From assembly GCA_002483345.1 (NCBI GenBank), contig DLHS01000016.1:21956-85955 (forward strand): DNA of 64,000 bases, given 5' to 3'. This DNA is from Bacteroidetes bacterium UBA7662. GTDB taxonomy: Bacteria > Bacteroidota > Bacteroidia > UBA7662. The notes beneath the pieces were generated by a model. The model saw nothing but the letters and a program-made list of their open reading frames with translations, did not search any database and was not told where the DNA came from. Positions 2,403 through 43,249 of this stretch are shown piece by piece. Position 1 is the stretch's first letter; the number at the start of each line of letters is the position of its first letter. Position numbers and translations under genes: made by a program.

Positions 2403-2497
2403 CCCTTACTTTGAAGACAAAGACCTCTTTCTCCTGGCCCTTGCTCCTGTGTTGGCTGGTGCTGACAGAACTGGTGCTGGGTGGGGGTGGCCGCTGG

Positions 2498-5300: not shown

Positions 5301-5348
5301 TAAGAAAAGAAACCGCTGCGAAGCAGCTCCATTATTTATATTTGAGGT

Positions 5349-8223: not shown

Positions 8224-9471
8224 CTAACGGTTCGGGGCACTCACTTTATCAGGCAAATTCAAATAAAGGAGAGAAGAAAAAATACCAAAGAACAAAACAC
8301 CCCTGTGCCAGAAGAGAATGGTTTCCGTCTGGAGGCAAAGAAAAATAAAGGCGAGAAATGCTACAAAAAGGAGATTTTTTGTCTTGAAACCCCTTCTTAT
8401 GCCGTAAACAAAAATTCCCAGAAGCAGAAAAGACTGAATAAGACCACCATAAAGAGCTGCTTCTACAAACTGGTTATGACTATTGTATTGTCCCACAAGA
8501 CCTGTCTGAAATCCCTTTTGGGTATACACTTCCCTGAGTGCGTCCTTCCCATCTCCGGCACCTGTACCAAACCATAAATTATCCTGTATTACTTCTGCAG
8601 CGCACTCCCATTGGGCCAAACGAACAGTAATGCCATTGTAGTCAGCTGCCTGATAGGTTTTAATATCATAATCCAGACTTTCAGTCACCTCGAGCAATCT
8701 TAGTTGTACCTGGGAGGGTAAAAAACGGAAACTGAGTACGAACAGCAAGACTATGCCCAATAAAACAGCCACCGGCTTCCACCGCTTCAGTGTTATTGCC
8801 TGATAAACAACGGCCAGCCCCAGGGTAAGCAGGGCAGCCAGCATGGTCATTCTGCCATTAAGCATCACCAGACAAGCGAGCAGGCAGATTCCGGCAGTGA
8901 TACTCCCTGTATTTACCCGCCAGTGTTTATCCATCCAGAATTTGACAAGGATACCGAGACTGACTATCAGCTGCAAGCTGAAATACCCCGGATGCATAAT
9001 CGGCTCGGATAAACCCGTGTAGAAAAAGTAAGCGTAATATATGGTCTCATCTATCACCGGTGAATGATAAACGCGCCAGGCTGCGAAGACAAATGCACCG
9101 GCAACTGCCGCCAGCGATGACAGCAACTGTGCTTTGAATAACCACCTTAAATCCGCCTGATCAGGTTTCCTGATTAACAACAGACCAGGAAGCAACACCA
9201 ATAGTAACTGAGTCCCCAGATTCGAGCCGGCATCTGCCCAATTTTGAGTCCATAACAAGCTCAAAAGCTGCCAGCAGAAATAAAACAACAGTCCTCTGAA
9301 CCAGCCATTGTGCCTTAATTCCCGCCAATTATTTGACTTCCAGCCAACCAAAACAAGGAGTATCAGCACTGCCAAAGCATAGCTGCTAAACCAAACCGGT
9401 AAAAACTGCGAAACGATTAAAAGCATCCAGCCGGCACGTATTGGCCAACCCATCGATTCGCTATTCAGCAT
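8224..9471 (-). CDS. Wzy_C / O-antigen ligase-family membrane protein
   Basis: Polytopic membrane protein with a YNSHNQFVEAALYGGLIQ motif (H-N-x-F-x-E...G) characteristic of O-antigen ligase/Wzy_C. It is a lone minus-strand gene inside the plus block. Confidence 0.55.
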   Translation of the reverse strand: MLNSESMGWPIRAGWMLLIVSQFLPVWFSSYALAVLILLVLVGWKSNNWRELRHNGWFRGLLFYFCWQLLSLLWTQNWADAGSNLGTQLLLVLLPGLLLIRKPDQADLRWLFKAQLLSSLAAVAGAFVFAAWRVYHSPVIDETIYYAYFFYTGLSEPIMHPGYFSLQLIVSLGILVKFWMDKHWRVNTGSITAGICLLACLVMLNGRMTMLAALLTLGLAVVYQAITLKRWKPVAVLLGIVLLFVLSFRFLPSQVQLRLLEVTESLDYDIKTYQAADYNGITVRLAQWECAAEVIQDNLWFGTGAGDGKDALREVYTQKGFQTGLVGQYNSHNQFVEAALYGGLIQSFLLLGIFVYGIRRGFKTKNLLFVAFLAFIFLCLQTETILFWHRGVLFFGIFSSLLYLNLPDKVSAPNR

Positions 9472-9532
9472 TTTAGGTTATTTTGCGGTGCCAAAACGTT
9501 GTTCTCAACCATATCAGCTCAAGATACGAAGG

Positions 9533-9925
9533 ATGCAAATTTTACAAGGAGACCTTTTCAAATTCATTAAGTTCGGAGTAGTTGGCTTTTCAGGTCTTCT
9601 GATTGACTTTGCCTTGACCTGGGTACTTAAAGAAAAGGCTCGGATTTCTCCTTATGCTGCCAATGCCGCAGGTTTTTTGGTCGCAGCGAGTTCTAACTGG
9701 TATCTCAACCGTATCTGGTCGTTTGAAAGTCAGAACAGCGAGTTGGTTGAGGAGTATTTTGCCTTTTTAGTTGTCTCTCTGCTTGGTTTGGTCATCAATA
9801 CAGCCGCTTTATTTGTAGGAATAAAAAAATTCAGACTCAATTTCTACCTGGCCAAAGCCATCGCCATCGCCATTACCACCTTCTGGAATTTTTTCGCCAA
9901 TTACTACTATACCTTTGCCGTATGA
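9533..9925 (+). CDS. GtrA-family membrane protein (putative polyprenyl-phosphate-sugar flippase subunit)
   Basis: About 130 aa, about 4 TM, KFGVVGFSGLLIDFALTWVL...NWYLNRIWSFES typical of GtrA. ATG at 9533 preferred over the upstream GTG at 9488. Confidence 0.65.
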   Translation: MQILQGDLFKFIKFGVVGFSGLLIDFALTWVLKEKARISPYAANAAGFLVAASSNWYLNRIWSFESQNSELVEEYFAFLVVSLLGLVINTAALFVGIKKFRLNFYLAKAIAIAITTFWNFFANYYYTFAV

Positions 9926-11343
9926 AGCGGCCGGGTATATATCAACTGATTCTTGCGACTACCCTTGCCGGATTTTTATTACCTAATTTATTTACTACCG
10001 GCATTTTCGGAGATGGATTAATTTATGCCGTCATTTCAAGAAATCTCTCGGAGGGACTAGGCAGTTGGTGGAATCTCTATTACAGTACCTATATTTTCTC
10101 GCCCTTTGCAGAACATCCTCCGCTCCTTTTCTGGGTTGAGTCGATATGGTTCAGGATACTGGGAGATTACCACTTTACCGAGAAAAGCTTCTCTGTATTA
10201 CTTGCAGCAGGCATGATTATCAGTCTTCGTTTTTTCTGGATAAGGATAGCCAGAAATCAGACAGAAAAACAAGCCTGGTGGTTTCCGGTACTGCTATGGA
10301 TTCTGGTCCCGACCATTCATTGGGCGTATCCCAACAATATGCTTGAAAACCTGATGGTTCTTTTTACCAGTTGGGCAGTATGGTCAGGATTTTATAAGCC
10401 TTCAGGCCAAAAGGCGCTCCTGGTAGGTGTGCTTGTTTTTTTAGCCTTTCTTACCAAGGGATTGGTCGGACTATTCCCGTTAGCCGTTTTCGGCATCCGT
10501 TGGTTAAGCCTCCGGGAGGATACCCTTCGTAAAGCACTTTCATGGACCTCTTTGGCGCTGTTTGGCTTTGTATTGTGTATGGCCATCAGTTTAATACCTG
10601 AATCGGCCCGGAATTATTGGATGCAGTATTTTGATGTACAGTTGCTGGCCACCCTGAGGGGCGAACGGCTGGTACAGGATCATGTGGTTGATCTTCCCCG
10701 TTACTATCTGCTCACAAGGCTCTTTACAGAGTTGATTAATCCGCTGCTTTTAACGGGGCTCCTGCTGCTGGGTACCCGCAGGTTCCGGAAAAAAGGAGCT
10801 GTACCTGCGTTAGCGCACGGCTACATCCTGTTCTTTGCACTGGTAGCATGCAGCGCTACTTTACCCTTGCTGATTTCTCCCAAGCAACACTCCTTTTACC
10901 TGATACCTGCCATTCCCTGGTTTATACTGGCTTTGTCGAAAGGTGCCGGGCCTTTTGTTTTTGATATCCTGGCACAATGGCAAAGCCGGCAACTGAGTTA
11001 TAAAATAAGTTACCTTTTTTTCAGTGGTCTTTTTGTGGCCGCCCTGGTCATATGTGGATGGCGGGCGAACCAACCTGGCCGGGATGCAGATTTGATGTCG
11101 GCAGTAGATGTCATAGCACATACAACAGGCTCACACCAGATAGGAATACCCCATTCCCTGATCAGGCACCATAGTTTACATGCCTATTTTCAGCGAAATC
11201 ATCACATCAGTCTCTCCCCCTATGACAGCACAGCAGGTTATTGGATAACTGAAAAGGATAGTATTCCTCCTCCCGGATATAAAACTATGGATATCGGCAT
11301 CTCCGGTTACGACTTGCACCAGCTTAGCGGGCAGCATCGTTAA
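9922..11343 (+). CDS. ArnT/PMT-like GT-C fold membrane glycosyltransferase (GT83/GT39-like)
   Basis: 473 aa polytopic protein. N-terminal GDGLIYAVISRNLSEG resembles the ArnT PDETRYAEISREMLASG motif. FLTKGLVGLFPLAV resembles ArnT VMTKGFLALAVPVL. Overlaps the GtrA stop. Confidence 0.6.
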   Translation: MKRPGIYQLILATTLAGFLLPNLFTTGIFGDGLIYAVISRNLSEGLGSWWNLYYSTYIFSPFAEHPPLLFWVESIWFRILGDYHFTEKSFSVLLAAGMIISLRFFWIRIARNQTEKQAWWFPVLLWILVPTIHWAYPNNMLENLMVLFTSWAVWSGFYKPSGQKALLVGVLVFLAFLTKGLVGLFPLAVFGIRWLSLREDTLRKALSWTSLALFGFVLCMAISLIPESARNYWMQYFDVQLLATLRGERLVQDHVVDLPRYYLLTRLFTELINPLLLTGLLLLGTRRFRKKGAVPALAHGYILFFALVACSATLPLLISPKQHSFYLIPAIPWFILALSKGAGPFVFDILAQWQSRQLSYKISYLFFSGLFVAALVICGWRANQPGRDADLMSAVDVIAHTTGSHQIGIPHSLIRHHSLHAYFQRNHHISLSPYDSTAGYWITEKDSIPPPGYKTMDIGISGYDLHQLSGQHR

Positions 11344-11370: not shown

Positions 11371-12453
11371 CTATGCTTCCTGATCGTTAACAGGATGATA
11401 GACATGTCTGGACTTTTGCCATTTTTTGATCAGAAACGGAATCTGACTCAGGACTAATGCAGAAAGAAGACTAATGCCCAATATTTGAATGGGCCGTAAA
11501 TCACGAAGCAGCCAGGCTAGTAAGATGAAACCTGCGTTGGCGGCATATAAGGTGAAGGCTGCCTGGCTATGCGACATGCCCAGATCAAGCAGGCAATGGT
11601 GGATATGGTTGCGGTCGGCAGAAAATGGCGATCGTTTGTGCATAATCCTGACAGTGAATACCCTCAAGGTATCGAAAAGAGGAATAATCAACACATTAAA
11701 GGCATATACTGCGCCCGCGATACTGAAAAAGTAATTCGGTTCAAAGGTTCTGCTCAGTTGTATAAATCGTACACTGATGATGGCAATTAAATACCCCAAA
11801 ACCAGCGAACCCGAATCACCCATAAATATGCTGGCATTCCTGAAATTAAACCGTAAAAATGCCAGCAGGGAGCCGATCATGGTCAGACACAAAATGAAAA
11901 AAACCTGATCATTCATGCGGTAAAACCAATACCCGAAAGTTGACAATACAATCACCCCGATGCCTCCTGCCAGTCCGTTGATGCCATCAATGAGGTTAAA
12001 GCCATTCATGATGGTAAGAATACTCAGGGTTGAAAAAACGATTGACTCCACATAATTCAAATCATGAATGCCGAGTAGTCCATAAAGATTATCAATCCTG
12101 ATTTCACCTTGTATGACTACAATCAGGGTAGCAATAATCTGGGCAAGAAGCTTCTTCCAGGCTACCAGCGGGAATAAATCATCTTTGATTCCTATGACAA
12201 ACAGTATCATCAGGGCCGACAATATTGCACCAAACTTAGGGACAGTCATTCCTGACGTCCAGAAAACAAATGAGAAGAAAAACCCGACAAAAAGCGCTAA
12301 ACCACCCAGCGTAGGAATCCGGGTCAGGTGGGCCTTCCTGTGATTTGGCTCGTCGTATAATTTTTTGATTCTCGCCAGATTAATAATCGCAGGAACACTG
12401 AGATAGGTGATCAGCCAAGCCGTAAAAAAAGACAGGATATAAATCAGGGTCAT
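11371..12453 (-). CDS. wecA: UDP-HexNAc:undecaprenyl-phosphate HexNAc-1-phosphate transferase (WecA/WbpL/TagO family, GT4 MraY-like)
   Basis: MraY/WecA motifs DDLFPLVAWKKL and NLIDGINGLAGG. 360 aa, 10-11 TM. Confidence 0.85.
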   Translation of the reverse strand: MTLIYILSFFTAWLITYLSVPAIINLARIKKLYDEPNHRKAHLTRIPTLGGLALFVGFFFSFVFWTSGMTVPKFGAILSALMILFVIGIKDDLFPLVAWKKLLAQIIATLIVVIQGEIRIDNLYGLLGIHDLNYVESIVFSTLSILTIMNGFNLIDGINGLAGGIGVIVLSTFGYWFYRMNDQVFFILCLTMIGSLLAFLRFNFRNASIFMGDSGSLVLGYLIAIISVRFIQLSRTFEPNYFFSIAGAVYAFNVLIIPLFDTLRVFTVRIMHKRSPFSADRNHIHHCLLDLGMSHSQAAFTLYAANAGFILLAWLLRDLRPIQILGISLLSALVLSQIPFLIKKWQKSRHVYHPVNDQEA

Positions 12454-12531: not shown

Positions 12532-12563
12532 AAAAAAACCCGTGCGGGACATGCCTGCACGGG
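12532..12563 (-). terminator. Rho-independent terminator after the capD/pglF-like gene
   Basis: On the minus strand, a GC-rich hairpin (acccgtgcaggc-atgt-cccgcacgggt, with one G-U pair) is followed by a run of 7 T. It lies 20 nt downstream of the stop at 12584. Confidence 0.55.
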
Positions 12564-12583: not shown

Positions 12584-14545
12584 CTAGTCTCCGAGGTTTT
12601 TATTTCCGTTTTCAGGAGCATCGTTGGCAAATCTCTTTTTATCAATTTCTTCAAAAACAGAGTTATTACTGACGAATTCGGGGACGATTTCTTTGATTTT
12701 GGCAACGATGCGGTGCTCCTCTCCTGTATTCAGAATCTGGCGTAAGACAACCAGTTGCTGAGCCACCTGATCATAATCATAGGCACGTACCTTGCCGATC
12801 ATGATTTTCGGGTGGTGGGTTGGTACCGTATTCTCCTGGACATTCAGCAGCTCTTCATAAAGCTTTTCTCCCGGACGTAGCCCGGTGAAAGTAATCTGAA
12901 TGTCTTTGCCGATGGTTAATCCCGACAGTTTCACCATCTTTTTGGCCACGTCCAGTATTTTGACGGATTCTCCCATGTCGAAGATGAAAATTTCACCTCC
13001 GTTACCCATAACGCCGGCCTCCAGCACGAGCTGGCAGGCTTCGGGTATGGTCATAAAGTACCGGGTGATATCCGGATGGGTTACCGTGATAGGTCCTCCG
13101 GCTTCAATCTGACGTTTAAAAAGTGGTATCACCGAGCCATTAGAACCCAGTACATTGCCAAAGCGGGTGGTCACAAATTTAGTATTGCCTGCATAGGCGT
13201 TGTTGAGGCTTTGCGTATAAATCTCTGCCACCCTTTTGGTAGAACCCATCACATTGGTAGGATTCACAGCCTTATCTGTAGAGACCATCACAAATTTACT
13301 CACCCCAAATTCTACCGAAAGGTCGGCCAGCAACTGCGTACCGAAAACATTTACCAAAACAGCTTCATAGCAGTTGTCTTCCATCAGGGGGACGTGCTTA
13401 TAAGCAGCCGCATGAAAAACATAGTTAGGATGGTACTTTTTGAAGAGGCTTCGCATCCGTTTATCGTTTCGGACATCTGCGATCACAAACCTCACATTGT
13501 GCAGCAGGTGGGCATGCAGTTTGCGTAATTCTATTTCCAGTTCGTAAAGGGGTGATTCAGCCTGGTCAATGAGGATAAGTTGGGCCGGCTTGTAATGAAG
13601 GAGTTGCCGGGCAATCTCTGAACCTATAGAACCTGCCGCACCTGTCACGAAAACAACTTTCTCTTCAATTTCATTGGAGACGTTTTCATTGTCAAGCACT
13701 ATCTCTTCCCGCTGCAGCAGGTCTTCAATTTTGACTGCTTTGATTTGTTTGCTGCTCAATTCTCCGTTGATCCAGTTCTGAACGGGAGGTACATTTTTAA
13801 CCTTGATGTTGTGAATCAGGCATTGATCAATAATCTGCCGTTTCCGGATATTGGAGATATTCTGAATAGAGAGAATTACTTCTTTTACATCCTTCTTCTC
13901 CACAAAATCAGACTCGAGTATACTGGCCGGATAAACACGGACCCCGTGTACTGATTTGAATACCTTGCTTGGATTATCATCGATGAAGGCTACTACATTG
14001 TAGTGCAGGCTATCGTCCTGCAGCAGGGTATTCCGGGTGATGGTGCCTGACTTACCGGCACCGTAGATGATTACATTGACTTTATTTTTGCCCCCCTCAA
14101 ATACCGCCATAAAAACGGCCTTGAAGAGAAATCTGCTGGTTACCAGCAAAAAAACTGCAAAGACGTACTGAATAAAAACTATGGCAAGTCCTACCGAGAG
14201 GGGGCCATAATTATTCGGAGAGAAGCGGTAAGTAAGCAGGTTGAGTAATATAAGGACCCCGGTTGCCAGCGTGGTGGCATAAAACAAACGAACCGCATCT
14301 TCTACCCCCGTATGTCGGATAATACCGCTGAAGGATTTAAACGTAATAAAACCTGCCAGGTATGAAACTGACACTATAGCCAACTGCCTCAGCGCAAGTT
14401 CAAAGTTGATGGCTGTAAGATCAAAATTGAACCGCACCAGATTTGAAATGGCAAAGGCAAATGCCACAATCGCCATGTCAATCAACAATACCATCCACCT
14501 CGAAACGAAGCGGTTGGAGTATATGCGGAGGTACTTTTGAAACAT
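12584..14545 (-). CDS. Membrane-anchored UDP-GlcNAc 4,6-dehydratase (CapD/PglF/WbpM family)
   Basis: 653 aa. N-terminal TM helices, Rossmann VFVTGAAGSIGSEIARQLL, polysacc_synt_2 architecture. Confidence 0.9.
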   Translation of the reverse strand: MFQKYLRIYSNRFVSRWMVLLIDMAIVAFAFAISNLVRFNFDLTAINFELALRQLAIVSVSYLAGFITFKSFSGIIRHTGVEDAVRLFYATTLATGVLILLNLLTYRFSPNNYGPLSVGLAIVFIQYVFAVFLLVTSRFLFKAVFMAVFEGGKNKVNVIIYGAGKSGTITRNTLLQDDSLHYNVVAFIDDNPSKVFKSVHGVRVYPASILESDFVEKKDVKEVILSIQNISNIRKRQIIDQCLIHNIKVKNVPPVQNWINGELSSKQIKAVKIEDLLQREEIVLDNENVSNEIEEKVVFVTGAAGSIGSEIARQLLHYKPAQLILIDQAESPLYELEIELRKLHAHLLHNVRFVIADVRNDKRMRSLFKKYHPNYVFHAAAYKHVPLMEDNCYEAVLVNVFGTQLLADLSVEFGVSKFVMVSTDKAVNPTNVMGSTKRVAEIYTQSLNNAYAGNTKFVTTRFGNVLGSNGSVIPLFKRQIEAGGPITVTHPDITRYFMTIPEACQLVLEAGVMGNGGEIFIFDMGESVKILDVAKKMVKLSGLTIGKDIQITFTGLRPGEKLYEELLNVQENTVPTHHPKIMIGKVRAYDYDQVAQQLVVLRQILNTGEEHRIVAKIKEIVPEFVSNNSVFEEIDKKRFANDAPENGNKNLGD

Positions 14546-14709
14546 TGCTTTACAAAGGTAAACTTCAAACCGACTTATACAGCATAAAAGTAAGAAGCGG
14601 CCGAGGCAGGAAAACTAACCAAATTGATATTAAGTCATGATTAATTTATACCAAGAACGTGAATATATCGCCGTCTGGACATACCCTTAACAGGGCATTT
14701 TTGGTCTGA

Positions 14710-15849
14710 TCAACCAGGGAAACAAGCCTTAACTGCCTTCACAACCCGGTCAAGGTCGTGGGTAGTCAGGTTAGATCCTGATGGCAGACACAAGCCCTTC
14801 TCAAAGAGTTTTGCTGATACTTCGCCACCATAATAAGGAGCAGTTTCGAAAACCGGTTGCATATGCATGGGCTTCCAAAGCGGTCTCGATTCAATGTTTT
14901 CTTTTTCAAGCGCCAACCGGATATTTTCACGGCTTATGCCTCCGGTAACAGCCGGGTCGACCAGAATAGTTGTAAGCCAGCGGTTTGTGAAACTCCCGGC
15001 TGGTTCAGTCACAAAAGAAATTCCTTCGATATCCCGGAAGGCATTTACATAATAGGCATAATTAGCACGACGCTGTTGAACCCTATCGCTGAGAACAAGC
15101 ATCTGCCCGCGACCAATACCTGCGCAAACATTACTCATACGATAGTTATACCCAATCTCACTGTGCTGATAATGGGGTGCAGCATCTCTTGCCTGTGTAG
15201 CCAGGAAACGAGCCTTTTCCACCAGTTTCGCATCGGCAGATATCAAGGCGCCACCACCGGAGGTAGTGATAATTTTGTTTCCATTAAAACTGAGCACACC
15301 CATTTTTCCGAATGTCCCGCAGGCCTGATGCTGGTAGGTGGACCCCAGTGCTTCTGCCGCATCTTCTACGATATCAATGCCGAATTCATTGGCAATCGCC
15401 GTGATTTCATCCATTTTTGCAGGCATCCCATAGAGGTGAACAGGGATAATAGCCTTTGGCTTTTTGCCTTTGGCGATGCGATCTAAAATAGCTTCCCTCA
15501 AAACCTTTGGATCCATATTCCAGGTATCTGGTTCTGAATCGATAAAAACCGGCAAAGCTCCGAGATAAGCAATCGGATTTGCAGAGGCTGAAAATGTAAA
15601 ACTCTGGCAAATTACTTCATCACCAGCCTTTACTCCCAGCAGAATTAATGCAAGGTGGATGGCCGAAGTCCCGCTTGAAAGCGCAGCAGCACTGGGTGAT
15701 TTTGTAAAATCACACAAATCCTGCTCAAATCCGTTTACATGCGGACCCAACGGCGCTATCCAGTTGGTATCAAAGGCATCTTTGACAAATTTAAACTCCT
15801 CCAGTCCCATATGGGGTGATGAAAGCCAGATTTTTGGTGATTCAGACAT
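14710..15849 (-). CDS. DegT/DnrJ/EryC1 PLP-dependent sugar aminotransferase (PglE-like, UDP-4-amino-sugar)
   Basis: WLSSPHMGLEEFKFVKDAF...LSSGTSAIHLALILLGVKAGDEVICQSFTF is a DegT-family signature. ATG at 15849 chosen (MSESPK). Confidence 0.85.
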   Translation of the reverse strand: MSESPKIWLSSPHMGLEEFKFVKDAFDTNWIAPLGPHVNGFEQDLCDFTKSPSAAALSSGTSAIHLALILLGVKAGDEVICQSFTFSASANPIAYLGALPVFIDSEPDTWNMDPKVLREAILDRIAKGKKPKAIIPVHLYGMPAKMDEITAIANEFGIDIVEDAAEALGSTYQHQACGTFGKMGVLSFNGNKIITTSGGGALISADAKLVEKARFLATQARDAAPHYQHSEIGYNYRMSNVCAGIGRGQMLVLSDRVQQRRANYAYYVNAFRDIEGISFVTEPAGSFTNRWLTTILVDPAVTGGISRENIRLALEKENIESRPLWKPMHMQPVFETAPYYGGEVSAKLFEKGLCLPSGSNLTTHDLDRVVKAVKACFPG

Positions 15850-16222
15850 ACTTATATTGAAATTTAAAAGCAAGAAAAACAACCACGGCGAAAATGGGTG
15901 TGGTGATTAACCGGTGTAAGGTGGCGCAAAAATTTTGTAGTGATTCAAATTCTAAACTAAAGATATAGAGTATGAAGAGTAATAAATAGAAAACAATGCT
16001 GATAAGTGTCAACAACCATGTCATTTTATGACCCAACATGAGAACGGCATATATAAGATAACTTCCCCATGCAATCAGAAGTACCCTGGCGAAAAGCACA
16101 CTATGTGGGTAAGTGCGAAAGAGAAAACTCCAATCCGGAATCAGGGAGAGTGCCTGCACTCCATAACTCATGATAAACAAGAATATGGCTAAACAAACTT
16201 TAAACAGCCTGCTCCTTAACAT
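15842..16222 (-). CDS. Small 4-TM membrane protein, putative exosortase-F-associated protein
   Basis: 126 aa, very hydrophobic. Tightly coupled (23-nt overlap) to the putative XrtF gene, a pairing characteristic of XrtF systems. The assignment is by context and size. Confidence 0.4.
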   Translation of the reverse strand: MLRSRLFKVCLAIFLFIMSYGVQALSLIPDWSFLFRTYPHSVLFARVLLIAWGSYLIYAVLMLGHKMTWLLTLISIVFYLLLFILYIFSLEFESLQNFCATLHRLITTPIFAVVVFLAFKFQYKYV

Positions 16223-16745
16223 GAGATCCGGGATTCGCTGTCGACTTCAACCAAAACAACCAGATGAGGAAAACACATGTATACATGATGGCGGTAAAGG
16301 CATACTTGTGATAATAATAAAAGAGGGTAGCGTTTTCTAAAGCAATGTTTAGCAGCAATACCAGTCTGATAAGGTTAAGCAAATGAATACTTAACAAGCC
16401 TATCAGGATATACCCGAATGTCCGTTTTGTCCATTTCCAGAATGCGACAAAAAAAGACAAAAACAAACCGGCTACGATAAAACCATTACACCCCTCAAAA
16501 ACTGAAACGGCGGGAACACCTGCAAGCCGGATTGTAAGGGCATCACGCTCTACAACCAAATCAACCGCCCGTGAATCAAATACCTGCTGTATTTCCGCGA
16601 CTTGCAAAGCAACGGAATAGGTAATAGGGTCAGGAACGCCTTCGTATGCAGATAAATAAATACTGTACCCTAACGAAAAAACCAGATAAAACAGGCCAAA
16701 TCTGACGACAAACCAAAGAGCCGGATATTTATCAGGATTCATCAT
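16200..16745 (-). CDS. xrtF: Putative exosortase family protein (short XrtF-like)
   Basis: 181 aa polytopic protein with Cys in EGCNGF followed by conserved Arg/Asn-containing helices (LLNLIRLVLLLNI). Short length and Bacteroidota context fit XrtF. Not verifiable without HMMs. Confidence 0.45.
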   Translation of the reverse strand: MMNPDKYPALWFVVRFGLFYLVFSLGYSIYLSAYEGVPDPITYSVALQVAEIQQVFDSRAVDLVVERDALTIRLAGVPAVSVFEGCNGFIVAGLFLSFFVAFWKWTKRTFGYILIGLLSIHLLNLIRLVLLLNIALENATLFYYYHKYAFTAIMYTCVFLIWLFWLKSTANPGSHVKEQAV

Positions 16746-17373
16746 GAAACTTTATAGGCTTGGCTGGTATGCCGACTGCAGTACAATAGGGAGGCAAACT
16801 TTTCGACACTACCGCACCTGAACCGACGATTGTATCTTCTCCTATTTCAAGCTGATTGATAATTTTTGCACCCGTTCCAACATATACGCCAGCCTTAATA
16901 ACCACCTCGCCCGATATATTTACCCCTGGCATAAAGGAGCTGTAGTCACCAATTATAGTGTCATGCCCTACTGTGCAGGCCAAATTGAGCAGCGTATGTT
17001 TTCCAAGAGAAATATCGACCGTTATCAGACAACCTGCACATATAATACTTCCATCTCCGATGCTCACCCGGTCTCCAATCAACACATTGGGGTGTATAAG
17101 CGTAGCGAATTTTGCTTTCGGGCCAAGGCGCTGAGCCACATTTCGTTTCGACTTGGGATTCCCCAATGCTAACACAAAATACGCTTCTGAATAATCCTTG
17201 GCCGAATCTATGCCTCCAATAACCTTTGTACTTCCAATGGCGGTTCCGGCTTCAAGGGATTCGTCCAGGAAACCCAATAAATCCCAGGTGAGTTGACGCG
17301 TGTTTATCTGGCTTATAAGCATCTCCACTTCTCTTCCAAACCCTCCTGCACCAATAATAATAACCTGCTTCAT
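16732..17373 (-). CDS. Sugar N-acetyltransferase, NeuD/PglD/PglB family (left-handed beta-helix)
   Basis: N-terminal Rossmann-like VIIIGAGGFGREV followed by hexapeptide repeats. 213 aa, typical for PglD/NeuD. Confidence 0.8.
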   Translation of the reverse strand: MKQVIIIGAGGFGREVEMLISQINTRQLTWDLLGFLDESLEAGTAIGSTKVIGGIDSAKDYSEAYFVLALGNPKSKRNVAQRLGPKAKFATLIHPNVLIGDRVSIGDGSIICAGCLITVDISLGKHTLLNLACTVGHDTIIGDYSSFMPGVNISGEVVIKAGVYVGTGAKIINQLEIGEDTIVGSGAVVSKSLPPYCTAVGIPAKPIKFHDES

Positions 17374-17984
17374 GTTTTTGATTTATTGCCTGTAAAATAC
17401 GTTGCAGTCGCAGCCCCCTGGGCATTAATTCCTTCCCGTATCAGCACTTTTTTAAAGGTCAGAAAAACTATTTTCAAGTCCAGCATAAAAGAGAAGTTAT
17501 CGACATACCAAACATCCAAAGCAAACTTTTCCTCCCAGGAAAGTGCATTCCGCCCGTTAATTTGTGCCCATCCGGTAATCCCAGGTCTTACATTATGTCT
17601 TTTTGATTGCTCCGGATTGTACAGGGGGAGATACTGAACAAGTAACGGTCTTGGTCCGATCAGACTCATTTCTCCCTTCAGCACATTAAAAAGTTGCGGG
17701 AGTTCATCCAGAGATGTTTTCCTGATAAAGCTACCCAGTCTGGTCATTCGTTTTTCATCAGGAAGCAGATTACCCTGCTCATCCCTGAGGTTGCTCATGG
17801 TTCTGAGTTTGACTAATCTGAATATCCGACTGTTTTTACCTGGTCTCAATTGCATGAAAAAGGGAGATTCTCCATCATAAAGGTAAATGAGCAATCCTAA
17901 AAACAGTATCACAGGTAATCCTAAAACAAGAACCAGGAAGGCCAGTGTGAAATCAATGAAACGTTTTCCAAATCTCTTGTACAT
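17370..17984 (-). CDS. Undecaprenyl-phosphate sugar phosphotransferase (PglC/WbaP-C-terminal 'bacterial sugar transferase')
   Basis: 204 aa with one N-terminal TM. Hallmark DELPQLFNVLKGEMSLIGPRP motif. Confidence 0.9.
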   Translation of the reverse strand: MYKRFGKRFIDFTLAFLVLVLGLPVILFLGLLIYLYDGESPFFMQLRPGKNSRIFRLVKLRTMSNLRDEQGNLLPDEKRMTRLGSFIRKTSLDELPQLFNVLKGEMSLIGPRPLLVQYLPLYNPEQSKRHNVRPGITGWAQINGRNALSWEEKFALDVWYVDNFSFMLDLKIVFLTFKKVLIREGINAQGAATATYFTGNKSKT

Positions 17985-17986: not shown

Positions 17987-19198
17987 CTAAAAAAATTGTT
18001 CATAGTCTCTGGCCAATTTATCGAAGCAGCGCTGTTCTTTCAGATATGCTATGGCCCTGGTTCCCATTTTTTCCCTTTCTTCAAATGACATACGCTGATA
18101 TCGGAGGATTTCTTTTGCAAGCAACTCAACATTCCCAAATGGCACAAAGCTCCCGCAATCGGCTTCATTAATCATCGACTGAAACCCGGAATATGAGCAA
18201 ACTATTGGTTTGCCTGCATTCATATAATCAATCCACTTATTTCTCGACAACCCGAAACGGGCAATTTCTGAATCAATAGCATCAAAACAAAGATCCACGT
18301 GCCTCAGAAAATTATTTACTAACTTTTTAGGAATGGGTGCTATAAAATGTATGTTCCCGAAATCCCTGTATTTCTCCTTATAGGTATCCAACATTGACCC
18401 GCTACCCAAAATATACGCCTCTACCTTAGCGTCTGTACCCAGACCTGCAACTGCAGCGAGCAGTGTTTCAATTGGATTATTGGGATTAATGGTCCCTGCA
18501 TAAGCAACTTTAAACGTATCCTGTGTAAAGGTATTTGAGACATAAGCGTCATCCAAAGGAACTCCGTATCCCAGGGATTCCCGTTTAATACCTTGTGGAA
18601 TACATACACACTCCTTAAAATATGGCTCTACCTCCCTAACATGTTCTATCAGATTCGGCATCGTACCAACTACCAAATCTGCCTTCCTGTATCCGAATTT
18701 TTCAAGAGTACCTAAAATCCATATAAAGGGGTTTCTACGGCTGAATCCCCCTAATTGCATGGCAGACAACGGCCAGATGTCCCGAATCTCCAGAATAAAT
18801 CTTGCCTTGTACCTGCGTGATAAAAGATATCCGGAAATTATACTCAGAATTGATAAAGACGATGCTATGACAACATCAGGCTTTGGAATTCCTTGTTTGG
18901 AGGTATAAAGGACTGCCCACTCAAAGTGAATCCAGGATAAAATACGTTGAACTGAAGAGGATTTTCTGGTCTTTAAAACCTTCAGCCAGATAGTCCGCAC
19001 CCCGGCTATATTCTCTTCCATTCTACTTCCTTCAAATACAGGCAGTTTGTCTGTTAAATGGGAAGCATTAGAGGTAAATACCGTCACATCATGGCCATTT
19101 TTCACCCATTCTTCTGCCAAATAAAAATGCCTCGTCCCGAAAAAGTACTTTTCAGGTGAGGCATATTTACAAATTAACCAGACGTTTTTACTCATCAC
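17987..19198 (-). CDS. Glycosyltransferase family 4
   Basis: 403 aa GT-B protein. C-terminal E-x7-E-like region typical of GT4. Confidence 0.75.
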   Translation of the reverse strand: MMSKNVWLICKYASPEKYFFGTRHFYLAEEWVKNGHDVTVFTSNASHLTDKLPVFEGSRMEENIAGVRTIWLKVLKTRKSSSVQRILSWIHFEWAVLYTSKQGIPKPDVVIASSLSILSIISGYLLSRRYKARFILEIRDIWPLSAMQLGGFSRRNPFIWILGTLEKFGYRKADLVVGTMPNLIEHVREVEPYFKECVCIPQGIKRESLGYGVPLDDAYVSNTFTQDTFKVAYAGTINPNNPIETLLAAVAGLGTDAKVEAYILGSGSMLDTYKEKYRDFGNIHFIAPIPKKLVNNFLRHVDLCFDAIDSEIARFGLSRNKWIDYMNAGKPIVCSYSGFQSMINEADCGSFVPFGNVELLAKEILRYQRMSFEEREKMGTRAIAYLKEQRCFDKLARDYEQFF

Positions 19199-20304
19199 GA
19201 TTCATAAAATTCCCGGATACAGCTTGCAACATAATTAATTTGTTCCTCCGTGAGCTCAGGATAAATAGGCAGGGACAGAATTTGCGACTGATAAGACGTA
19301 GCTACCGGGAAATCTGCCGGCTGATGTCCGAGATACTGATAGGCTTTAAGATTTGGCAGGGCAGTTGGGTAGTGGATGGCCGTTTCAACCTGCTTTCTTT
19401 TAAGGAACGTCATCAGGTCATCTCTTCTTTGGGCCCGAATTACATAAAGGTGAAAGGAGTGTTTGGAGTCAGGTCTTCTTGCTGGTGTCACAATTTGCGG
19501 AATGCCTTGTAAAGCTTTGTCGTACAAACTTGCACAGCGAATCCTTGCCTCTGTCCAATCGAGTATGTAAGGTAATTTTGCCGAAAGGATGGCTGCCTGC
19601 AAACCATCTAACCGGCTGTTGATTCCTTCAATCTGATGTTCATGTTTTTGGAGTGCCCCGTGTCGTGCATACATTTTGCATTTTTCAGCCAATTCGGCAT
19701 TGTTGGTAAGTATGCATCCTGCATCGCCATAGGCCCCCAGATTTTTACCAGGGTAAAAGCTGAAAGAAGCGGCAATACCAAAACTACCCACTCGTTTTCC
19801 CCCAAGCTCCGAAAAATGTGATTGTGCACAGTCTTCAATAACAGGAATACCATATTTATCTGCAATTGCGCAAATAGCTGTAATGTTAGCCGCCTGTCCT
19901 TGCAGATGTACCGGAATAATTGCTTTGGTCCGAGGGGTTATCCTTGCCTCAAGCATCGTTTCATCCATGCTATAATAAACAGGATCTATATCAACGAAAA
20001 CAGGCTTGGCACCTGTTTGGGAAATGGTTTCTGAAGAAGAAATCCAGCTGTTCGCCACGGTAATTACTTCGTCACCGTTCCCGATACCCAACATTTTCAT
20101 AATAATGTACAGAGAATCAGTACCATTGGCAACTGAAATACAATGCTTGATACCATAAAGGGATGAAAAGGCAGCTTCAAAATCTGTAACTGGTTTACCT
20201 CCAATAAAAGCTGTGTTTTCAATAACGTCAGAAATAGCGCTGTCTATTTCTTTCTTTATAGAATAATACTGTGCTTTTAAATCAACAAAAGGAACTTTTT
20301 GCAT
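19195..20304 (-). CDS. DegT-family aminotransferase (WbpE-like, UDP-2-acetamido-3-amino-2,3-dideoxy-hexuronate forming)
   Basis: VPFVDLKAQYYSIKKEIDSAI...CISVANGTDSLYI is a DegT/WbpE signature. Operon context with WbpD-like and WbpB-like genes. Confidence 0.8.
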   Translation of the reverse strand: MQKVPFVDLKAQYYSIKKEIDSAISDVIENTAFIGGKPVTDFEAAFSSLYGIKHCISVANGTDSLYIIMKMLGIGNGDEVITVANSWISSSETISQTGAKPVFVDIDPVYYSMDETMLEARITPRTKAIIPVHLQGQAANITAICAIADKYGIPVIEDCAQSHFSELGGKRVGSFGIAASFSFYPGKNLGAYGDAGCILTNNAELAEKCKMYARHGALQKHEHQIEGINSRLDGLQAAILSAKLPYILDWTEARIRCASLYDKALQGIPQIVTPARRPDSKHSFHLYVIRAQRRDDLMTFLKRKQVETAIHYPTALPNLKAYQYLGHQPADFPVATSYQSQILSLPIYPELTEEQINYVASCIREFYES

Positions 20305-20309
20305 ATAAG

Positions 20310-20765
20310 TTATTTAATTTTTTTGGCAGGATTTCCTGCATAAACTCCTGGCTGATGAATATCTTTTGTAACTACTGCCCCGGCACCAATAACCACATTA
20401 TCACATATGGTAACAGGAAGTATCGTTGCATTACTGCCAATGCTCACCTGATTCCCTATACGTGTTGACTTCCACAAGGTCTTGTCGCCTCTTGCCGGAC
20501 CACCTTTTGCAAAAAGGTCATTGATAAACATGACTCCATGACCGATAAAACAATCATCGCCAATATTAACCAGCTCACAAATAAATGAATGTGACTGGAT
20601 TTTAGTACGATGACCTATGATCACGTCTTTCTGGATCTCTACGAAAGGGCCAACAAAACAAGCATCTCCAATGGTACAGCCATATATATTAACAGGTTCA
20701 ACGATTTTGACTGATGAGCCAAACTGAACGTCTTTGATGGCAGAAGTATATAATGTAGGGCTCAT
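20310..20765 (-). CDS. Hexapeptide-repeat N-acetyltransferase (WbpD-like)
   Basis: 151 aa left-handed beta-helix protein. Adjacent to the WbpB/WbpE homologues. Confidence 0.7.
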   Translation of the reverse strand: MSPTLYTSAIKDVQFGSSVKIVEPVNIYGCTIGDACFVGPFVEIQKDVIIGHRTKIQSHSFICELVNIGDDCFIGHGVMFINDLFAKGGPARGDKTLWKSTRIGNQVSIGSNATILPVTICDNVVIGAGAVVTKDIHQPGVYAGNPAKKIK

Positions 20766-21778
20766 GACGCATTTTGTTTAACCGATTGATAAATCTTATC
20801 AATGATTTCAACAGTTTTCAGTCCCTCAAAAGAATTGGTAGAAATTGTGCTTCCATTGTTCAGAACATCTATTACATTTTCATATACCTTATCATGATTT
20901 GACATGGAACCCTGGTACTTACCATAGTTATTTGCCGTATTTCCAACAGGCAAATCTTTAAATTCAAATCCATCAATGTTCTGGTATTCCAACTCATTCA
21001 GATACTGACCTCCGATTTTTACGGTTCCTTTTTCCGCAAAAATGGTCAGTGATCCTTCCATATTTTTGCCATAGCTGTTAACAGTGTAATTTACAGTACC
21101 TATGGCACCGTTGTAGAACTGCATCACAACTGCGCCTGTGTCTTCAAATTCAATCACACCTTCATGGGCATAATTACCCATAAAAGCATGTACTTGTTTT
21201 ACATCACCCACTATCCAATAAAGTAAATCAATAAAATGGCTGAACTGAGTGTACAGCGTTCCGCCATCAAGTGCTTTAGTTCCTTTCCAGGAATTTTCGT
21301 AATAATCAAAGTTCCTGTTCCAGAAACAGCTGAGCTGAACACTGTAAATCTTACCCATTATACCCTCATCAATGGCCTTCTTGACTGCAGCAACCGGTGG
21401 ATTAAATCTGTTCTGTTTTATGGCAAACAAGCGTTTGTTATTTTTTTCCGCAGTTTTAATCATTTCACCACAATCATAAACACTGATTGCCATAGGTTTT
21501 TCACATAAGACATGATATCCTGCATTCAATGCTGCAATGGCGTGCTGAGCATGGAGCCCGTTAGGGCTGCTTATGGTCACAACATCTACATCGGGTTTTG
21601 CAGTCAGGAGTTCTTCTATCGAAAAAAACACCCGGGCATCATATTTCTTGCCGAGAGAATTAGCCTTTTCAGGTTCTATATCGCATACTGCCACTAACTC
21701 CCCTAGTCTTGCTATATGTTCGGCATGGCGTTGTGCAATCCGTCCACAACCAACAATTGCAAATTTAATTTTTTTCAT
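20762..21778 (-). CDS. Gfo/Idh/MocA-family oxidoreductase (WbpB-like UDP-GlcNAcA 3-dehydrogenase)
   Basis: KFAIVGCGRIAQRHAEHI N-terminal Rossmann of the Gfo/Idh/MocA family. 338 aa. Confidence 0.8.
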   Translation of the reverse strand: MKKIKFAIVGCGRIAQRHAEHIARLGELVAVCDIEPEKANSLGKKYDARVFFSIEELLTAKPDVDVVTISSPNGLHAQHAIAALNAGYHVLCEKPMAISVYDCGEMIKTAEKNNKRLFAIKQNRFNPPVAAVKKAIDEGIMGKIYSVQLSCFWNRNFDYYENSWKGTKALDGGTLYTQFSHFIDLLYWIVGDVKQVHAFMGNYAHEGVIEFEDTGAVVMQFYNGAIGTVNYTVNSYGKNMEGSLTIFAEKGTVKIGGQYLNELEYQNIDGFEFKDLPVGNTANNYGKYQGSMSNHDKVYENVIDVLNNGSTISTNSFEGLKTVEIIDKIYQSVKQNAS

Positions 21779-22905
21779 ATACTGGGCTTTTCAAGGTATA
21801 AATTAAGGTAGGTCTTGGCAATTTGAGTCCATGAGAATGGTGCGACCGCCTGAACAGCTTCCCTACTTGCCGTTTCGAAATTGTCAGCTATTTTTTTGAT
21901 AGCTTCAATACTCTCGTTCATATTGTTTGGTTGTACCGGAATTGCAAAGCTACTCTTTTCAAAATAACCATCTATTCCCTGCCCTGCAGTATGTATAACA
22001 GGTAAACCCTGACTCAGCGCCTCCAAATAAACCAAACCAAATGTTTCAAGCTTACTGATCATGACAAAAATATCATGTTCTCCATAAAGCGCCCGCATGG
22101 CAGTGGCTCCTTCAACCTTTCCGACAAATTTCACAAAACTAAAGTCTTCTTGCTTTAAAGCCTTTAAAACACTTTCATGACCATCTCCGCCCCCTCCGGC
22201 AAGCGTGAGTGTTACAGGACGTTCTCCAGATAGTGCTTTTATCACGCTAAGAAGAAGTAAAATGTTTTTATTGAAGGTAAAATCACCTACGTACAATATC
22301 CTCAATGGATTATGGGGTACAGGCCGGGATTCCTGATTTTCAAACCAATCAGGAGTTAATCCGTTTGGTATCACAGTCGCATTCAAAATACGCTCCTTCA
22401 GTTGCCCGGCAATATATTTATCCGCAACCTGCTTCCGATACGACGGTGTAACAAATATGCACTGCCTGGCATTTGACAGAATATTTTGTCCATGTCCTCT
22501 CAGATGAATCATATATTTAAAAAACATATTTACATCTGTATTCCTGACTGCTGTAATATATGGGATTGAAAATTGCTGCTTTAATTTCAAGGCAACACCC
22601 CCGTCACTGAATAAGAAGTGAGCATGGATGATGTCTATTCCTTTTATTTCCACTTTGGACAGAACATCCTCATAAATGGTATTGATTTTTGATTTGTAAA
22701 GTATACGGTGTTTTGGCTCAAGAATATGGGCATAAATAACAACTGTATCCGGTACATTAGGGATATCGTACTTCCCAACTTCTGCTGCTGTCCTGACAGG
22801 TACATAAATGGTTTGACGGATTCCCATTTGTGCAAGCGACAGAAAAAGTTCTTTGTACAGCTTTTGTCTGGAATAATCGGAGCACAAATGAAGCACATGT
22901 ATCAT
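21775..22905 (-). CDS. Glycosyltransferase family 4
   Basis: 376 aa GT-B protein. Overlapping start and stop with neighbours. Confidence 0.75.
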   Translation of the reverse strand: MIHVLHLCSDYSRQKLYKELFLSLAQMGIRQTIYVPVRTAAEVGKYDIPNVPDTVVIYAHILEPKHRILYKSKINTIYEDVLSKVEIKGIDIIHAHFLFSDGGVALKLKQQFSIPYITAVRNTDVNMFFKYMIHLRGHGQNILSNARQCIFVTPSYRKQVADKYIAGQLKERILNATVIPNGLTPDWFENQESRPVPHNPLRILYVGDFTFNKNILLLLSVIKALSGERPVTLTLAGGGGDGHESVLKALKQEDFSFVKFVGKVEGATAMRALYGEHDIFVMISKLETFGLVYLEALSQGLPVIHTAGQGIDGYFEKSSFAIPVQPNNMNESIEAIKKIADNFETASREAVQAVAPFSWTQIAKTYLNLYLEKPSI

Positions 22906-24032
22906 CTGGAGTAATAGCCCTTTTCTCTTAGTTTATTTACAAAAGACTTTAGCTTTTGTACTCTTTCAAAATTATTGGGGTAATCTCTGAACGTTTTAGG
23001 AGGCAGAGCCATGATAGCATCAAAAGATGCTTCATTTAACTCAAATTTCTTGATAACAAAATCCTTGTCCTGCCTGAAGAGTTTTTCATCATAACCAGGC
23101 AATTCCATTTGTTTCAGCGCATCCTCCCGGCTTATCTGTCCCGACTTAATCAAATCTGATAAATGAGCTTTGCGTTTATCTATTCCAAATTTCCGGGGCA
23201 GAATATAACCCTGAAAAAATCTTGTATAGACCGACTCATAGTGTTTACCTCCGTAATAAACCCAGCCAAGCTCAGATTGAAGAATCTCCATCACGGCATC
23301 CTTCTTATAATCTACATAGTTTAATATTGAAATTACTTTAATTCGTTTTACAATATTCCACCAGAACAAATCAAAGAAAGTGTATTTGGGATATCGGTTC
23401 AATTTAGCTGTCCCGAAAATCTTTTGAATTGACTTAATATACTTCCAATCACTGTGTCCATATGCCCATCCGGGTACACTAATGGATTCTGCCGCGAAAT
23501 TCATTCCATTTATAATATACTTGATTCCCCTCTTATTAGCCTCCCTGAACAGCAAGGCATTGATGGCATGATCTGTCGGGATTTCACCATCCGGTGTGGA
23601 AGCCTTTAAAAATGAAAGCTGCAAATCTTTAAATTCTTCCCAATCAATGACATAAGTATATAAGTCAATGCCCAGGTGATCCAGTGTCTTTTCTATATTA
23701 CTTACAGCTAATTCAGAATTCCATCCGTTATCAAAGTGAATGGCCAGGGGCCGGATGCCCAGTTGTTTGGTTAAATAGGCCACATAGGTGCTGTCAACAC
23801 CTCCGCTCACGCCAATGATACAATCGTATTCCTTCCCGTTACCGGATGCCTTTATTTTTTCTATCAGTATGCTGAGTTTCTGATCAGCCTCCTGTCCGCT
23901 AAATACCCTTCTATGGAGTTCGCTGTTATACCTCAGACAATGATTGCAGATTCCCTTGCTGTCAAATGTAATGTCCGGATCAGAAGTATCCATTATACAC
24001 TGGGTACATATTTTATAGGCGAGATCTTTCAT
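22902..24032 (-). CDS. N-acetyl sugar amidotransferase (WbpG/WbuX/PseA-like PP-loop ATPase)
   Basis: N-terminal Cys cluster (CTQC...CNHC) and PP-loop IIGVSGGVDSTYVAYL. 376 aa. Immediately followed by HisH/HisF paralogs as in wbpG-hisF-hisH and wbuXYZ clusters. Confidence 0.8.
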   Translation of the reverse strand: MKDLAYKICTQCIMDTSDPDITFDSKGICNHCLRYNSELHRRVFSGQEADQKLSILIEKIKASGNGKEYDCIIGVSGGVDSTYVAYLTKQLGIRPLAIHFDNGWNSELAVSNIEKTLDHLGIDLYTYVIDWEEFKDLQLSFLKASTPDGEIPTDHAINALLFREANKRGIKYIINGMNFAAESISVPGWAYGHSDWKYIKSIQKIFGTAKLNRYPKYTFFDLFWWNIVKRIKVISILNYVDYKKDAVMEILQSELGWVYYGGKHYESVYTRFFQGYILPRKFGIDKRKAHLSDLIKSGQISREDALKQMELPGYDEKLFRQDKDFVIKKFELNEASFDAIMALPPKTFRDYPNNFERVQKLKSFVNKLREKGYYSR

Positions 24033-24784: not shown

Positions 24785-24786
24785 TT

Positions 24787-27537: not shown

Positions 27538-27544
27538 GGTAGTC

Positions 27545-41299: not shown

Positions 41300-41300
41300 G

Positions 41301-43173: not shown

Positions 43174-43226
43174 TTTCTACTTATTGGCTGCTAAAATAAC
43201 TAATCCTCTTTGATATCCCGAATTCA

Positions 43227-43234: not shown

Positions 43235-43249
43235 TGCAAAAACAATTTC

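Follow-up and report, generated by a model that had tools for sequence, protein, structure and literature searches.

The 64,000-nucleotide stretch of Bacteroidetes bacterium UBA7662 DNA analyzed here, called the window below, carries at 12584–17984 on its minus strand a complete set of PglF-, PglE-, PglD- and PglC-type enzymes for making a bacillosamine-type sugar and priming a glycan with it. Nested among these genes is a pair encoding the exosortase XrtF and a small membrane partner. The sugar module alone is routine, extending a known kind to an uncultured, Cytophagales-like lineage of the Bacteroidota, and the nesting of XrtF is the only unusual feature. The useful result is a conserved operon consisting of a phosphoglycosyl transferase (PGT), one or more NeuD-type acetyltransferases, XrtF, its partner and a PglE-type aminotransferase; in most Cytophagales this operon is often followed by genes for a giant type IX secretion system (T9SS) cargo protein and for PglF. 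We consider it likely that the module provides the sugar precursor for a Wzx/Wzy-dependent surface polysaccharide pathway and initiates it, and that the co-transcribed XrtF pair acts on, or with, the glycolipid or glycan of that pathway. Within the literature library searched, no paper names both exosortase and bacillosamine, and the coupling of XrtF to a PglC/PglD/PglE-type module is apparently undescribed.

The module has six consecutive genes, where a first-pass annotation of this DNA had named four. Those four sugar genes are present on the minus strand with the boundaries it had proposed, at family scores far beyond chance, and the homology scores bear out its claim of a complete Pgl-like module, here of PglF–PglE–PglD–PglC type, that brings its own priming transferase, a small monotopic one. 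It had overlooked the two genes between pglD and pglE, which encode XrtF and the partner. Protein families were scored with Pfam and NCBIfam models, and solved structures served as functionally characterized landmarks. The features are collected in Table 1. The genes are tightly packed: 2 nt separate the stop of the upstream glycosyltransferase gene from the pglC start, and the overlaps that follow measure 4 nt between pglC and pglD, 14 nt between pglD and xrtF, 23 nt between xrtF and the open reading frame (ORF) of the partner, and 8 nt between the partner ORF and pglE (ATGTCTGA). The overlaps, running from the glycosyltransferase gene down to pglE, indicate that the XrtF pair is co-translated with its neighbors. 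A 165-nt gap separates pglE from pglF and holds TACCTTTG 7 nt 5′ of the pglF ATG. Rfam and tRNA scans of the window gave no matches.

Table 1. The six genes of the module and the features that border it.
Feature	Coordinates	Strand	Size and supporting matches
GT4-family glycosyltransferase, directly upstream of pglC	17987–19198	−	Glyco_trans_4_4, Glyco_trans_1_4 and Glycos_transf_1 domains
pglC-type PGT	17370–17984	−	204 aa; Bac_transf 209 bits
NeuD/PglD-type N-acetyltransferase	16732–17373	−	213 aa; TIGR03570 195.7 bits (cut-off 160.8); PglD_N
Exosortase XrtF	16200–16745	−	181 aa; TIGR04128 101.9 bits (cut-off 90)
XrtF partner, multi-pass hydrophobic membrane protein	15842–16222	−	126 aa; without family match
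PglE-type pyridoxal-phosphate aminotransferase	14710–15849 (mechanical ORF to 15882)	−	DegT (PF01041) 329 bits
PglF/WbpM/CapD-type membrane-anchored 4,6-dehydratase	12584–14545	−	653 aa; Polysacc_synt_2 (PF02719) 400 bits
Terminator-like hairpin, between pglF stop and start of WecA-like gene	12532–12563	−	read from sequence
WecA-like polytopic phospho-N-acetylhexosamine transferase (PNPT), outside the module	11371–12453	−	Glycos_transf_4 (PF00953) 128 bits

The homology tests all support a bacillosamine product (gluco, 2,4-diamino-2,4,6-trideoxy) over the pseudaminic acid (Pse) and N-acetylquinovosamine/N-acetylfucosamine (QuiNAc/FucNAc) routes, as far as sequence can predict it. The best solved relative of the dehydratase is the catalytic domain of Campylobacter jejuni PglF/WlaL (5bju, 300 bits), well ahead of CapD (176 bits), FnlA/CapE (135–143 bits) and PseB/FlaA1 (130 bits); enzymes of the inverting or 5-epimerizing kind reach 130–135 bits. 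The enzyme has the nicotinamide adenine dinucleotide (NAD) motif VTGAAGSIG and the motif STDKAV, whose Thr, Asp and Lys we take, from the PglF literature, to be the catalytic trio. For the aminotransferase, the first-pass annotation had called for placement against PglE and PseC, among others, and the outcome favors PglE: C. jejuni PglE (1o61/4ztc) is the best solved relative at 338 bits (E 5e-100), against 230 bits for perosamine synthase, 149 for ArnB, 134 for WbpE and 85 for PseC. Among NCBIfam models, the LegC-family hidden Markov model (HMM) scores best, at 394 bits and just under its cut-off of 420, versus 239 bits for the PseC HMM. LegC and PglE both yield the gluco 4-amine. The Schiff-base Lys is kept: NGNKIITTSGGG aligns at the position that carries an Ala mutation in 4ztc. 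The true start of the aminotransferase is likely the ATG at 15849 and not the TTG at 15882, because similarity to PglE begins just downstream of that ATG. Supply of precursors for Pse or legionaminic acid (Leg) was considered and rejected: PseB and PseC scores are low, and none of the scanned ORFs is NeuB-, NeuA- or NeuC-like, which means that the module feeds no nonulosonic-acid pathway. The QuiNAc/FucNAc route was likewise rejected, as no clear 4-keto reductase of the WbpK/WbpV type was recognized.

The PGT points to the same sugar. It scores 241 bits (phmmer) against Campylobacter concisus PglC (8g1n), to which it is 55% identical, gapless over residues 1–200, and 122 bits against WbaP. PF02397 covers residues 7–181 of its 204, and the N-terminus is hydrophobic. 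Small PGTs specific for uridine diphosphate (UDP)-linked di-N-acetylbacillosamine (diNAcBac) have a published fingerprint, consisting of an aromatic box (Y118/Y122/W150/F154/F197), a GLLLP loop at 71–75, the D93-E94 dyad and a PRP motif (Anderson et al., PMC10186338). The window PGT has the YYWFF box, G71-N-L-L-P75, D93-E94 and P111-R112-P113, all at the C. concisus PglC positions. Judged by its residues, then, it bears the complete published UDP-diNAcBac fingerprint, and the GPRP motif that had been claimed for it is present as SLIGPRPLL. It differs from the fingerprint enzymes at the E117-K196 salt bridge, where it has Q117/Y196. It also draws a match of 165 bits, under the cut-off, from TIGR03013, the model for PGTs of the XrtA system.

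The acetyltransferase is, on sequence criteria, the least certain assignment of the four sugar enzymes. Besides its match to the NeuD/PglB/VioB family (TIGR03570), it has PglD_N (PF17836, 46.7 bits) and Hexapep (58.7 bits) domains. Its solved relatives are VioB (135 bits), WeeI (4m9c, 100 bits), the acetyltransferase domain of Neisseria PglB (4m98, 76 bits), two Psychrobacter enzymes (about 75 bits), PerB (67 bits) and C. jejuni PglD (55 bits). VioB, WeeI, the PglB domain, PerB and PglD all N-acetylate the 4-amino group of 4-amino-4,6-dideoxyhexoses, and their nucleotide carriers differ. WeeI and the Neisseria PglB domain are presumably enzymes of the UDP-diNAcBac pathway. The position of the gene in the operon favors a UDP sugar as substrate.

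The third gene of the module encodes a divergent XrtF. The protein scores 99 bits against the XrtX model (cut-off 170), and it keeps the nearly invariant family residues E84-G85-C86-N87, R127 and H146. In an exhaustive search of 1.84 billion representatives the best match was only 44% identical; a word-indexed homolog search with this XrtF alone returned 2 proteins, and a profile search of solved structures gave no matches. The 126-aa protein encoded next is probably the exosortase F system-associated membrane protein (TIGR04127) in a divergent form, an ortholog by position. Of all window ORFs it ranks highest against an HMM of 65 small ORFs that follow xrtF in other loci, with a weak match (E 0.0057). 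With the corresponding small ORF of L001, the locus from the closest syntenic genome, it shares 39% identity over 82 aa (E 7e-14), and that ORF matches the HMM at E 1e-5. The corresponding ORFs of L017, L003, L010 and L037, which come from Ohtaekwangia, Fulvivirga, Chryseolinea and a Bacteroidia metagenome-assembled genome (MAG), pass TIGR04127 at 40–50 bits (cut-off 35). The partners of L002–L080 and the window end in a conserved HR(L/M)(I/V)xNP motif, a hydrophobic stretch of about 14 residues, then YQ and a basic tail. The C-terminus of the window protein reads LHRLITTPIFAVVVFLAFKFQYKYV and has the motif LHRLxx(N/T)P...FxQ followed by basic residues. This C-terminal arrangement loosely recalls a C-terminal sorting signal.

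The nesting of XrtF in sugar genes extends well beyond the window. A pattern scan of 185,579 species genomes, made with an 11-sequence XrtF alignment (a 41-sequence alignment proved too diverse for the purpose), yielded 80 loci, mostly from Cyclobacteriaceae, Ohtaekwangia, Chryseolinea, Roseivirgaceae, Fulvivirga and other Cytophagales, with some from Flavobacteriales. Neighboring genes were found by tblastn with the window proteins, and the denominators that follow are the loci with enough flank. In 52/76 loci the gene directly upstream of XrtF is that of a NeuD-type acetyltransferase, and a PglC-like PGT lies at most 2.5 kb upstream in 42/66. The small ORF is followed directly by a PglE-like gene in 38 of 69 loci, and nine more have the PglE-like gene upstream. 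All three sugar genes are near XrtF in 35 of the 62 loci that could be scored for them, and a PglF-like gene lies within 10 kb in 24 of 36. The nested XrtF proteins are 34–45% identical to that of the window, and the arrangement is found in contigs from many different samples. Complete YYWFF boxes with GLL(P/S) are present in 27 XrtF-linked PGTs; a second group has YFWFF together with a box-less paralog. The Flavobacteriales-type loci of the sample have no adjacent sugar genes. Across the loci, the acetyltransferase is the most persistent neighbor of XrtF. Two loci labeled "uncultured Burkholderiales" (L002) and "Agrobacterium sp." (L048) are Bacteroidota-type XrtF loci with a layout near-identical to that of Bacteroidia MAGs, and are probably mis-binned or mislabeled.

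Two further features of the surveyed loci bear on the module. In L001 the glycosyltransferase gene upstream of pglC keeps its place in the order, and the window proteins are 90% (PglF), 79% (a WbpE-like protein), 73% (PglC), 73% (PglE), 72% (the glycosyltransferase) and 63% (the acetyltransferase) identical to their L001 counterparts. At least 45 of the 80 loci encode, between the PglE-like gene and pglF, a giant protein of 1,500–1,700 aa that is rich in Thr, Ser, Asn and Gly (e.g., L017:12158–16942), and its full-length copies end in a T9SS type A sorting domain (TIGR04183/PF18962). In Cytophagales, the XrtF cluster may be there for one particular surface protein. A search of the window found no homolog of the giant protein, and L001 lacks it as well.

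The module forms the 3′ end of a co-directional 32-kb locus that runs from about 43173 down to 12584 and encodes Wza, Wzz, Wzx and Wzy, RmlB, a WecE/VioA-type transaminase, a methyltransferase, a membrane-bound O-acyltransferase (MBOAT) and three GT4-family glycosyltransferases (30211–31353, 21775–22905 and the one next to pglC). Two WbpB/WbpD/WbpE-like sets, a TviB/WbpA-like dehydrogenase and a WbuX/HisH/HisF amidotransferase trio of the same locus lie at 19195–26570 and 40292–44377; this inventory implies 2,3-diacetamido or acetamidino uronic acids in the polymer. A branch for a deoxythymidine diphosphate (dTDP)-linked sugar (32804–34596 and 38221–39252) consists of RmlB (445 bits, above cut-off), the transaminase, a 4-aminotransferase at 592 bits, and the methyltransferase; neither RmlA nor an obvious dedicated acyltransferase for this branch was seen in the window. 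Three proteins of the Wzy_C family are encoded at 2273–3709, 8224–9471 and 28994–30214. They are indistinguishable among Wzy, WaaL and PglL-like enzymes, and no solved relative was found for the one at 8224–9471. The MBOAT is DltB/AlgI-like (27545–28993) and is followed by a 341-aa protein without family match (26596–27621); the two, at 26596–28993, are probably a polysaccharide O-acylation pair.

On this basis we propose the following pathway. The PglF-like dehydratase would convert UDP-GlcNAc to UDP-2-acetamido-2,6-dideoxy-xylo-4-hexulose, from which the PglE-like aminotransferase would form the 4-amino (gluco) sugar. The NeuD/PglD-type enzyme would then N-acetylate C4, giving UDP-diNAcBac or a very close 4-acylamido analog, and the PglC-like PGT would transfer diNAcBac-1-phosphate to undecaprenyl phosphate. 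The adjacent GT4 enzyme is a candidate for the first extender of undecaprenyl-diphosphate-linked diNAcBac (Und-PP-diNAcBac). Other glycosyltransferases of the locus could extend the unit further, probably with the 2,3-diacetamido or acetamidino uronic acids suggested by the Wbp-like and WbuX/HisH/HisF genes. Wzx would flip the unit and Wzy polymerize it, with Wzz and Wza handling chain length and export. PglC most likely primes the repeat unit of a Wzy-dependent polymer, because the module is the 3′ end of a Wzx/Wzy/Wzz/Wza locus; the fate of the glycan is read here from that context. Because the nesting is conserved across many genomes, the glycolipid or glycan begun by the module is also the most likely target, or companion in action, of the XrtF pair.

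The WecA-like enzyme would initiate some other lipid-linked glycan independently. Its gene looks like an independent unit, a neighbor of the module and not part of it, because a terminator precedes it and L001 lacks it there. The terminator-like hairpin (cccgtgcagg...cccgcacggg) is GC-rich, with 7+2 bp, and is followed by TTTTTTT. A consensus scan for sigma-70 promoters and terminators performed at background level and missed this hairpin. L001 retains the flanking pglF and, beyond it, the PMT_2, GtrA and Wzy_C genes. It has no WecA-like gene between them, nor anywhere in the 20 kb examined. The gene, which converges on the plus-strand PMT_2 gene ending at 11343, had been annotated as a WecA-family enzyme. 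A PNPT gene is indeed present, as the protein matches PF00953 and has the motifs NxxNxxDGINGL and HIHH; its score against the WecA equivalog TIGR02380, however, is 152 bits, far under the cut-off of 326, which places it as a PNPT but not as WecA itself. The argument that two priming enzymes imply two glycans from the locus is not demonstrated, given that the WecA-like gene is bounded by a terminator and absent from the syntenic L001, though two glycans are plausible. A candidate user of the WecA-like primer is a second glycan cluster on the plus strand at 84–8218. It holds four GT2 glycosyltransferases, the Wzy_C-like protein at 2273–3709, a mannose-1-phosphate guanylyltransferase (5349–6644) and a 525-aa protein without family.

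Several observations weigh against our reading of the module, and they are set here beside the alternatives they would serve. For the product, the stereochemistry at C4, the acyl group and the carrier nucleotide are all predicted from homology. The nearest solved relative of the acetyltransferase, VioB, is a dTDP-viosamine acetyltransferase, far ahead of C. jejuni PglD, and the locus also encodes a dTDP-4-amino-4,6-dideoxyhexose branch, with RmlB and a WecE/VioA-type transaminase, that requires an acyltransferase. Typical XrtF loci, moreover, hold two NeuD-type enzymes, and the paralog nearer to C. jejuni PglD is the one absent from the window. The enzyme might then serve the dTDP branch in the manner of VioB, or the XrtF system, leaving the PGT to use a free 4-amino or otherwise acylated bacillosamine. 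Loci of Marivirga arenosa (L082:7774–9931) and of a JGI genome (L083:7770–9937), which keep two NeuD-type acetyltransferases, XrtF and the partner with no PGT or DegT gene nearby, would suit such a role. We nevertheless consider it quite improbable that the enzyme does not perform the PglD step: its gene overlaps pglC within the pglC–pglE operon, the two presumed diNAcBac acetyltransferases, WeeI and the Neisseria PglB domain, are also close to it, the PGT fingerprint is that of enzymes using a di-N-acetylated sugar, and no other NeuD-type enzyme is encoded in the window. As to XrtF, its functional coupling to the module is one that we infer solely from conserved gene order, and the pair could be a passenger whose position reflects the inherited gene order of one lineage with no shared function. 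The 80 surveyed loci are the closest relatives of the window XrtF and no random sample of the family; in 16 of 62, a quarter, all three sugar genes are missing from the vicinity of XrtF, Marivirga keeps the acetyltransferases alone of the three, and a Cytophaga-like genome (L081:9001–9974) has XrtF and the partner alone. The partner in the window gives no NCBIfam match even at E values up to 1 and fails TIGR04127. Between the window (15842–16745) and L001 (L001:9971–10884), XrtF is 45% and the partner 39% identical, so that the pair has diverged much faster than the flanking genes at 63–90%. Against the passenger explanation, which we hold to be somewhat unlikely, the nesting persists across genera whose XrtF proteins have diverged widely, in contigs of diverse origin, and it survives rearrangements, such as the upstream placement of pglE in 9 loci; the tight overlaps, too, indicate co-translation.

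Two further alternatives concern the glycan rather than the individual genes. The first-pass annotation had emphasized protein glycosylation. In such a scheme, a PglL-like O-oligosaccharyltransferase of the kind found in Neisseria would hand the whole Und-PP-diNAcBac-primed oligosaccharide over to proteins, instead of or besides its polymerization. It is true that diNAcBac is the reducing-end sugar of the Campylobacter and Neisseria systems (PMC10186338), that Wzy_C, the family of the three proteins noted above, includes PglL-type enzymes, and that a giant secreted T9SS protein is encoded within the cluster in most related loci. The genomic context gives this proposal no backing. No STT3/PglB oligosaccharyltransferase domain occurs in any scanned ORF, the Wzy_C proteins are inseparable from WaaL and Wzy, and the module is translationally coupled to the glycosyltransferases of a locus that, by its Wzx, Wzy, Wzz and Wza, is characteristic of a polymerized polysaccharide, so that protein glycosylation seems decidedly unlikely. 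We find it very improbable that the locus follows the WbpM/WbpL logic of Pseudomonas aeruginosa, with the dehydratase mainly feeding a QuiNAc/FucNAc-type sugar and the WecA-like PNPT as the true primer. With its wbpA/B/D/E-like and hisH/hisF/amidotransferase genes, the locus bears a strong resemblance to the O5 wbp cluster of P. aeruginosa, and the dehydratase and PNPT genes are adjacent at its 3′ end. Yet no clear WbpK/WbpV-type 4-keto reductase was identified (a short-chain dehydrogenase/reductase at 46095–47078 has no assignment), the terminator stands between dehydratase and PNPT, L001 keeps pglF without a WecA-like gene there, and it is pglC, not the PNPT gene, that is translationally coupled to the glycosyltransferases.

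Comparison with known systems places the module, read as the initiating end of a polysaccharide pathway, among familiar ones. Modules in which diNAcBac primes O-antigens, capsules and glycoproteins are well known. The Campylobacter PglF–PglE–PglD–PglC system has the same four enzyme families in one cluster and provides the best solved relatives of the window's PglF, PglE and PglC; its PglC shares the catalytic dyad, PRP, GxLLP and aromatic box with the window PGT. The window differs in having neither the PglB oligosaccharyltransferase nor the Campylobacter-type glycosyltransferases, in its setting within a Wzx/Wzy/Wzz/Wza locus, in an acetyltransferase distant from C. jejuni PglD, and in the exosortase pair that interrupts the operon. 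The WeeK/WeeJ/WeeI/WeeH proteins of Acinetobacter baumannii and PglD/PglC/PglB of Neisseria, from another phylum, form diNAcBac modules, located in capsule and O-glycan loci, that prime Wzy-type or O-linked glycans, and their acetyltransferases are near that of the window. We know of no exosortase in the Acinetobacter or Neisseria diNAcBac loci. The P. aeruginosa O5 B-band cluster (wbpA–E, hisH/F, wbpG, wbpL and wbpM) has a similar inventory, with genes for 2,3-diacetamido uronic acids, an amidotransferase trio and a terminal dehydratase beside a PNPT. Beyond this, the window has a PglE/PglD/PglC branch and XrtF, shows no recognizable WbpK-type reductase, and carries its PNPT as a unit set apart behind a terminator.

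For the exosortase, the nearest parallels are the PEP-CTERM/exosortase (XrtA/EpsH) loci for extracellular polysaccharide (EPS), where an exosortase likewise occurs in a polysaccharide locus with a priming transferase of the Bac_transf family. In the XrtF system, there is a constant small membrane partner, and the linked genes are those for a small PglC-type PGT, one or more NeuD-type acetyltransferases and a PglE-type aminotransferase. An adjacent pair with an exosortase of the same NCBIfam family is also formed in Flavobacterium johnsoniae by XrtF (Fjoh_1448) and Fjoh_1449, and the window partner is too divergent for TIGR04127.

The link between exosortases and EPS loci goes back to 2006, and we know of no acceptor molecule for any of them. 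For XrtF, there are no known PEP-CTERM-like substrates (PMC10936215). In F. johnsoniae, deletion of xrtF or of the partner gene abolishes biofilm and zorb formation, and T9SS mutants and deletion of a DegT sugar aminotransferase cause the same loss (PMC10936215). Veith et al. (PMC7468200) offered the speculation that an amino-sugar compound is what exosortases conjugate proteins to. A specific, chemically defined sugar pathway around XrtF is a testable candidate for what the XrtF system handles. We would tentatively extend this, in a proposal that we rate as unlikely, to XrtF and its partner being a dedicated system that acts on the diNAcBac-primed, lipid-linked glycan, either joining a protein C-terminus to the glycolipid or coupling the glycan to the giant T9SS protein. 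In one version, a transpeptidase-like XrtF would attach a protein to the amino-sugar glycolipid, possibly the partner itself, with its HRLxxNP motif, hydrophobic stretch and basic tail. In the other, the XrtF system would link the glycan to the giant T9SS surface protein encoded in most Cytophagales clusters. If true, this would be the first time that a substrate or acceptor is known for any XrtF, and it would open a biochemical route to the molecules that exosortases join to proteins.

A few other features of the window deserve mention. The trio of a Wzy_C-family protein (minus strand), GtrA and PMT_2 (GT-C fold) at 8224–11343, which is kept beside pglF in L001, could be a ligase or O-oligosaccharyltransferase together with lipid-linked sugar modification. 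At 39240–40291, a 175-aa winged-helix (ArsR/PaaX-like) protein heads the RmlB–Wza–Wzz stretch; its gene is preceded by a 525-nt non-coding gap (39768–40291), possibly a regulatory region of the locus. At 47891–50535, a NusG-family (UpxY-like) protein is encoded upstream of another gene and a 3-deoxy-D-manno-oct-2-ulosonic acid (Kdo) transferase, which suggests antitermination control of a lipopolysaccharide-core operon beside the polysaccharide locus. Finally, SucB (59796–61019) is only 65–69% identical to its nearest cultured relatives (Adhaeribacter, Rudanella, Spirosoma and Aquirufa) and 81–88% identical to metagenomic proteins.

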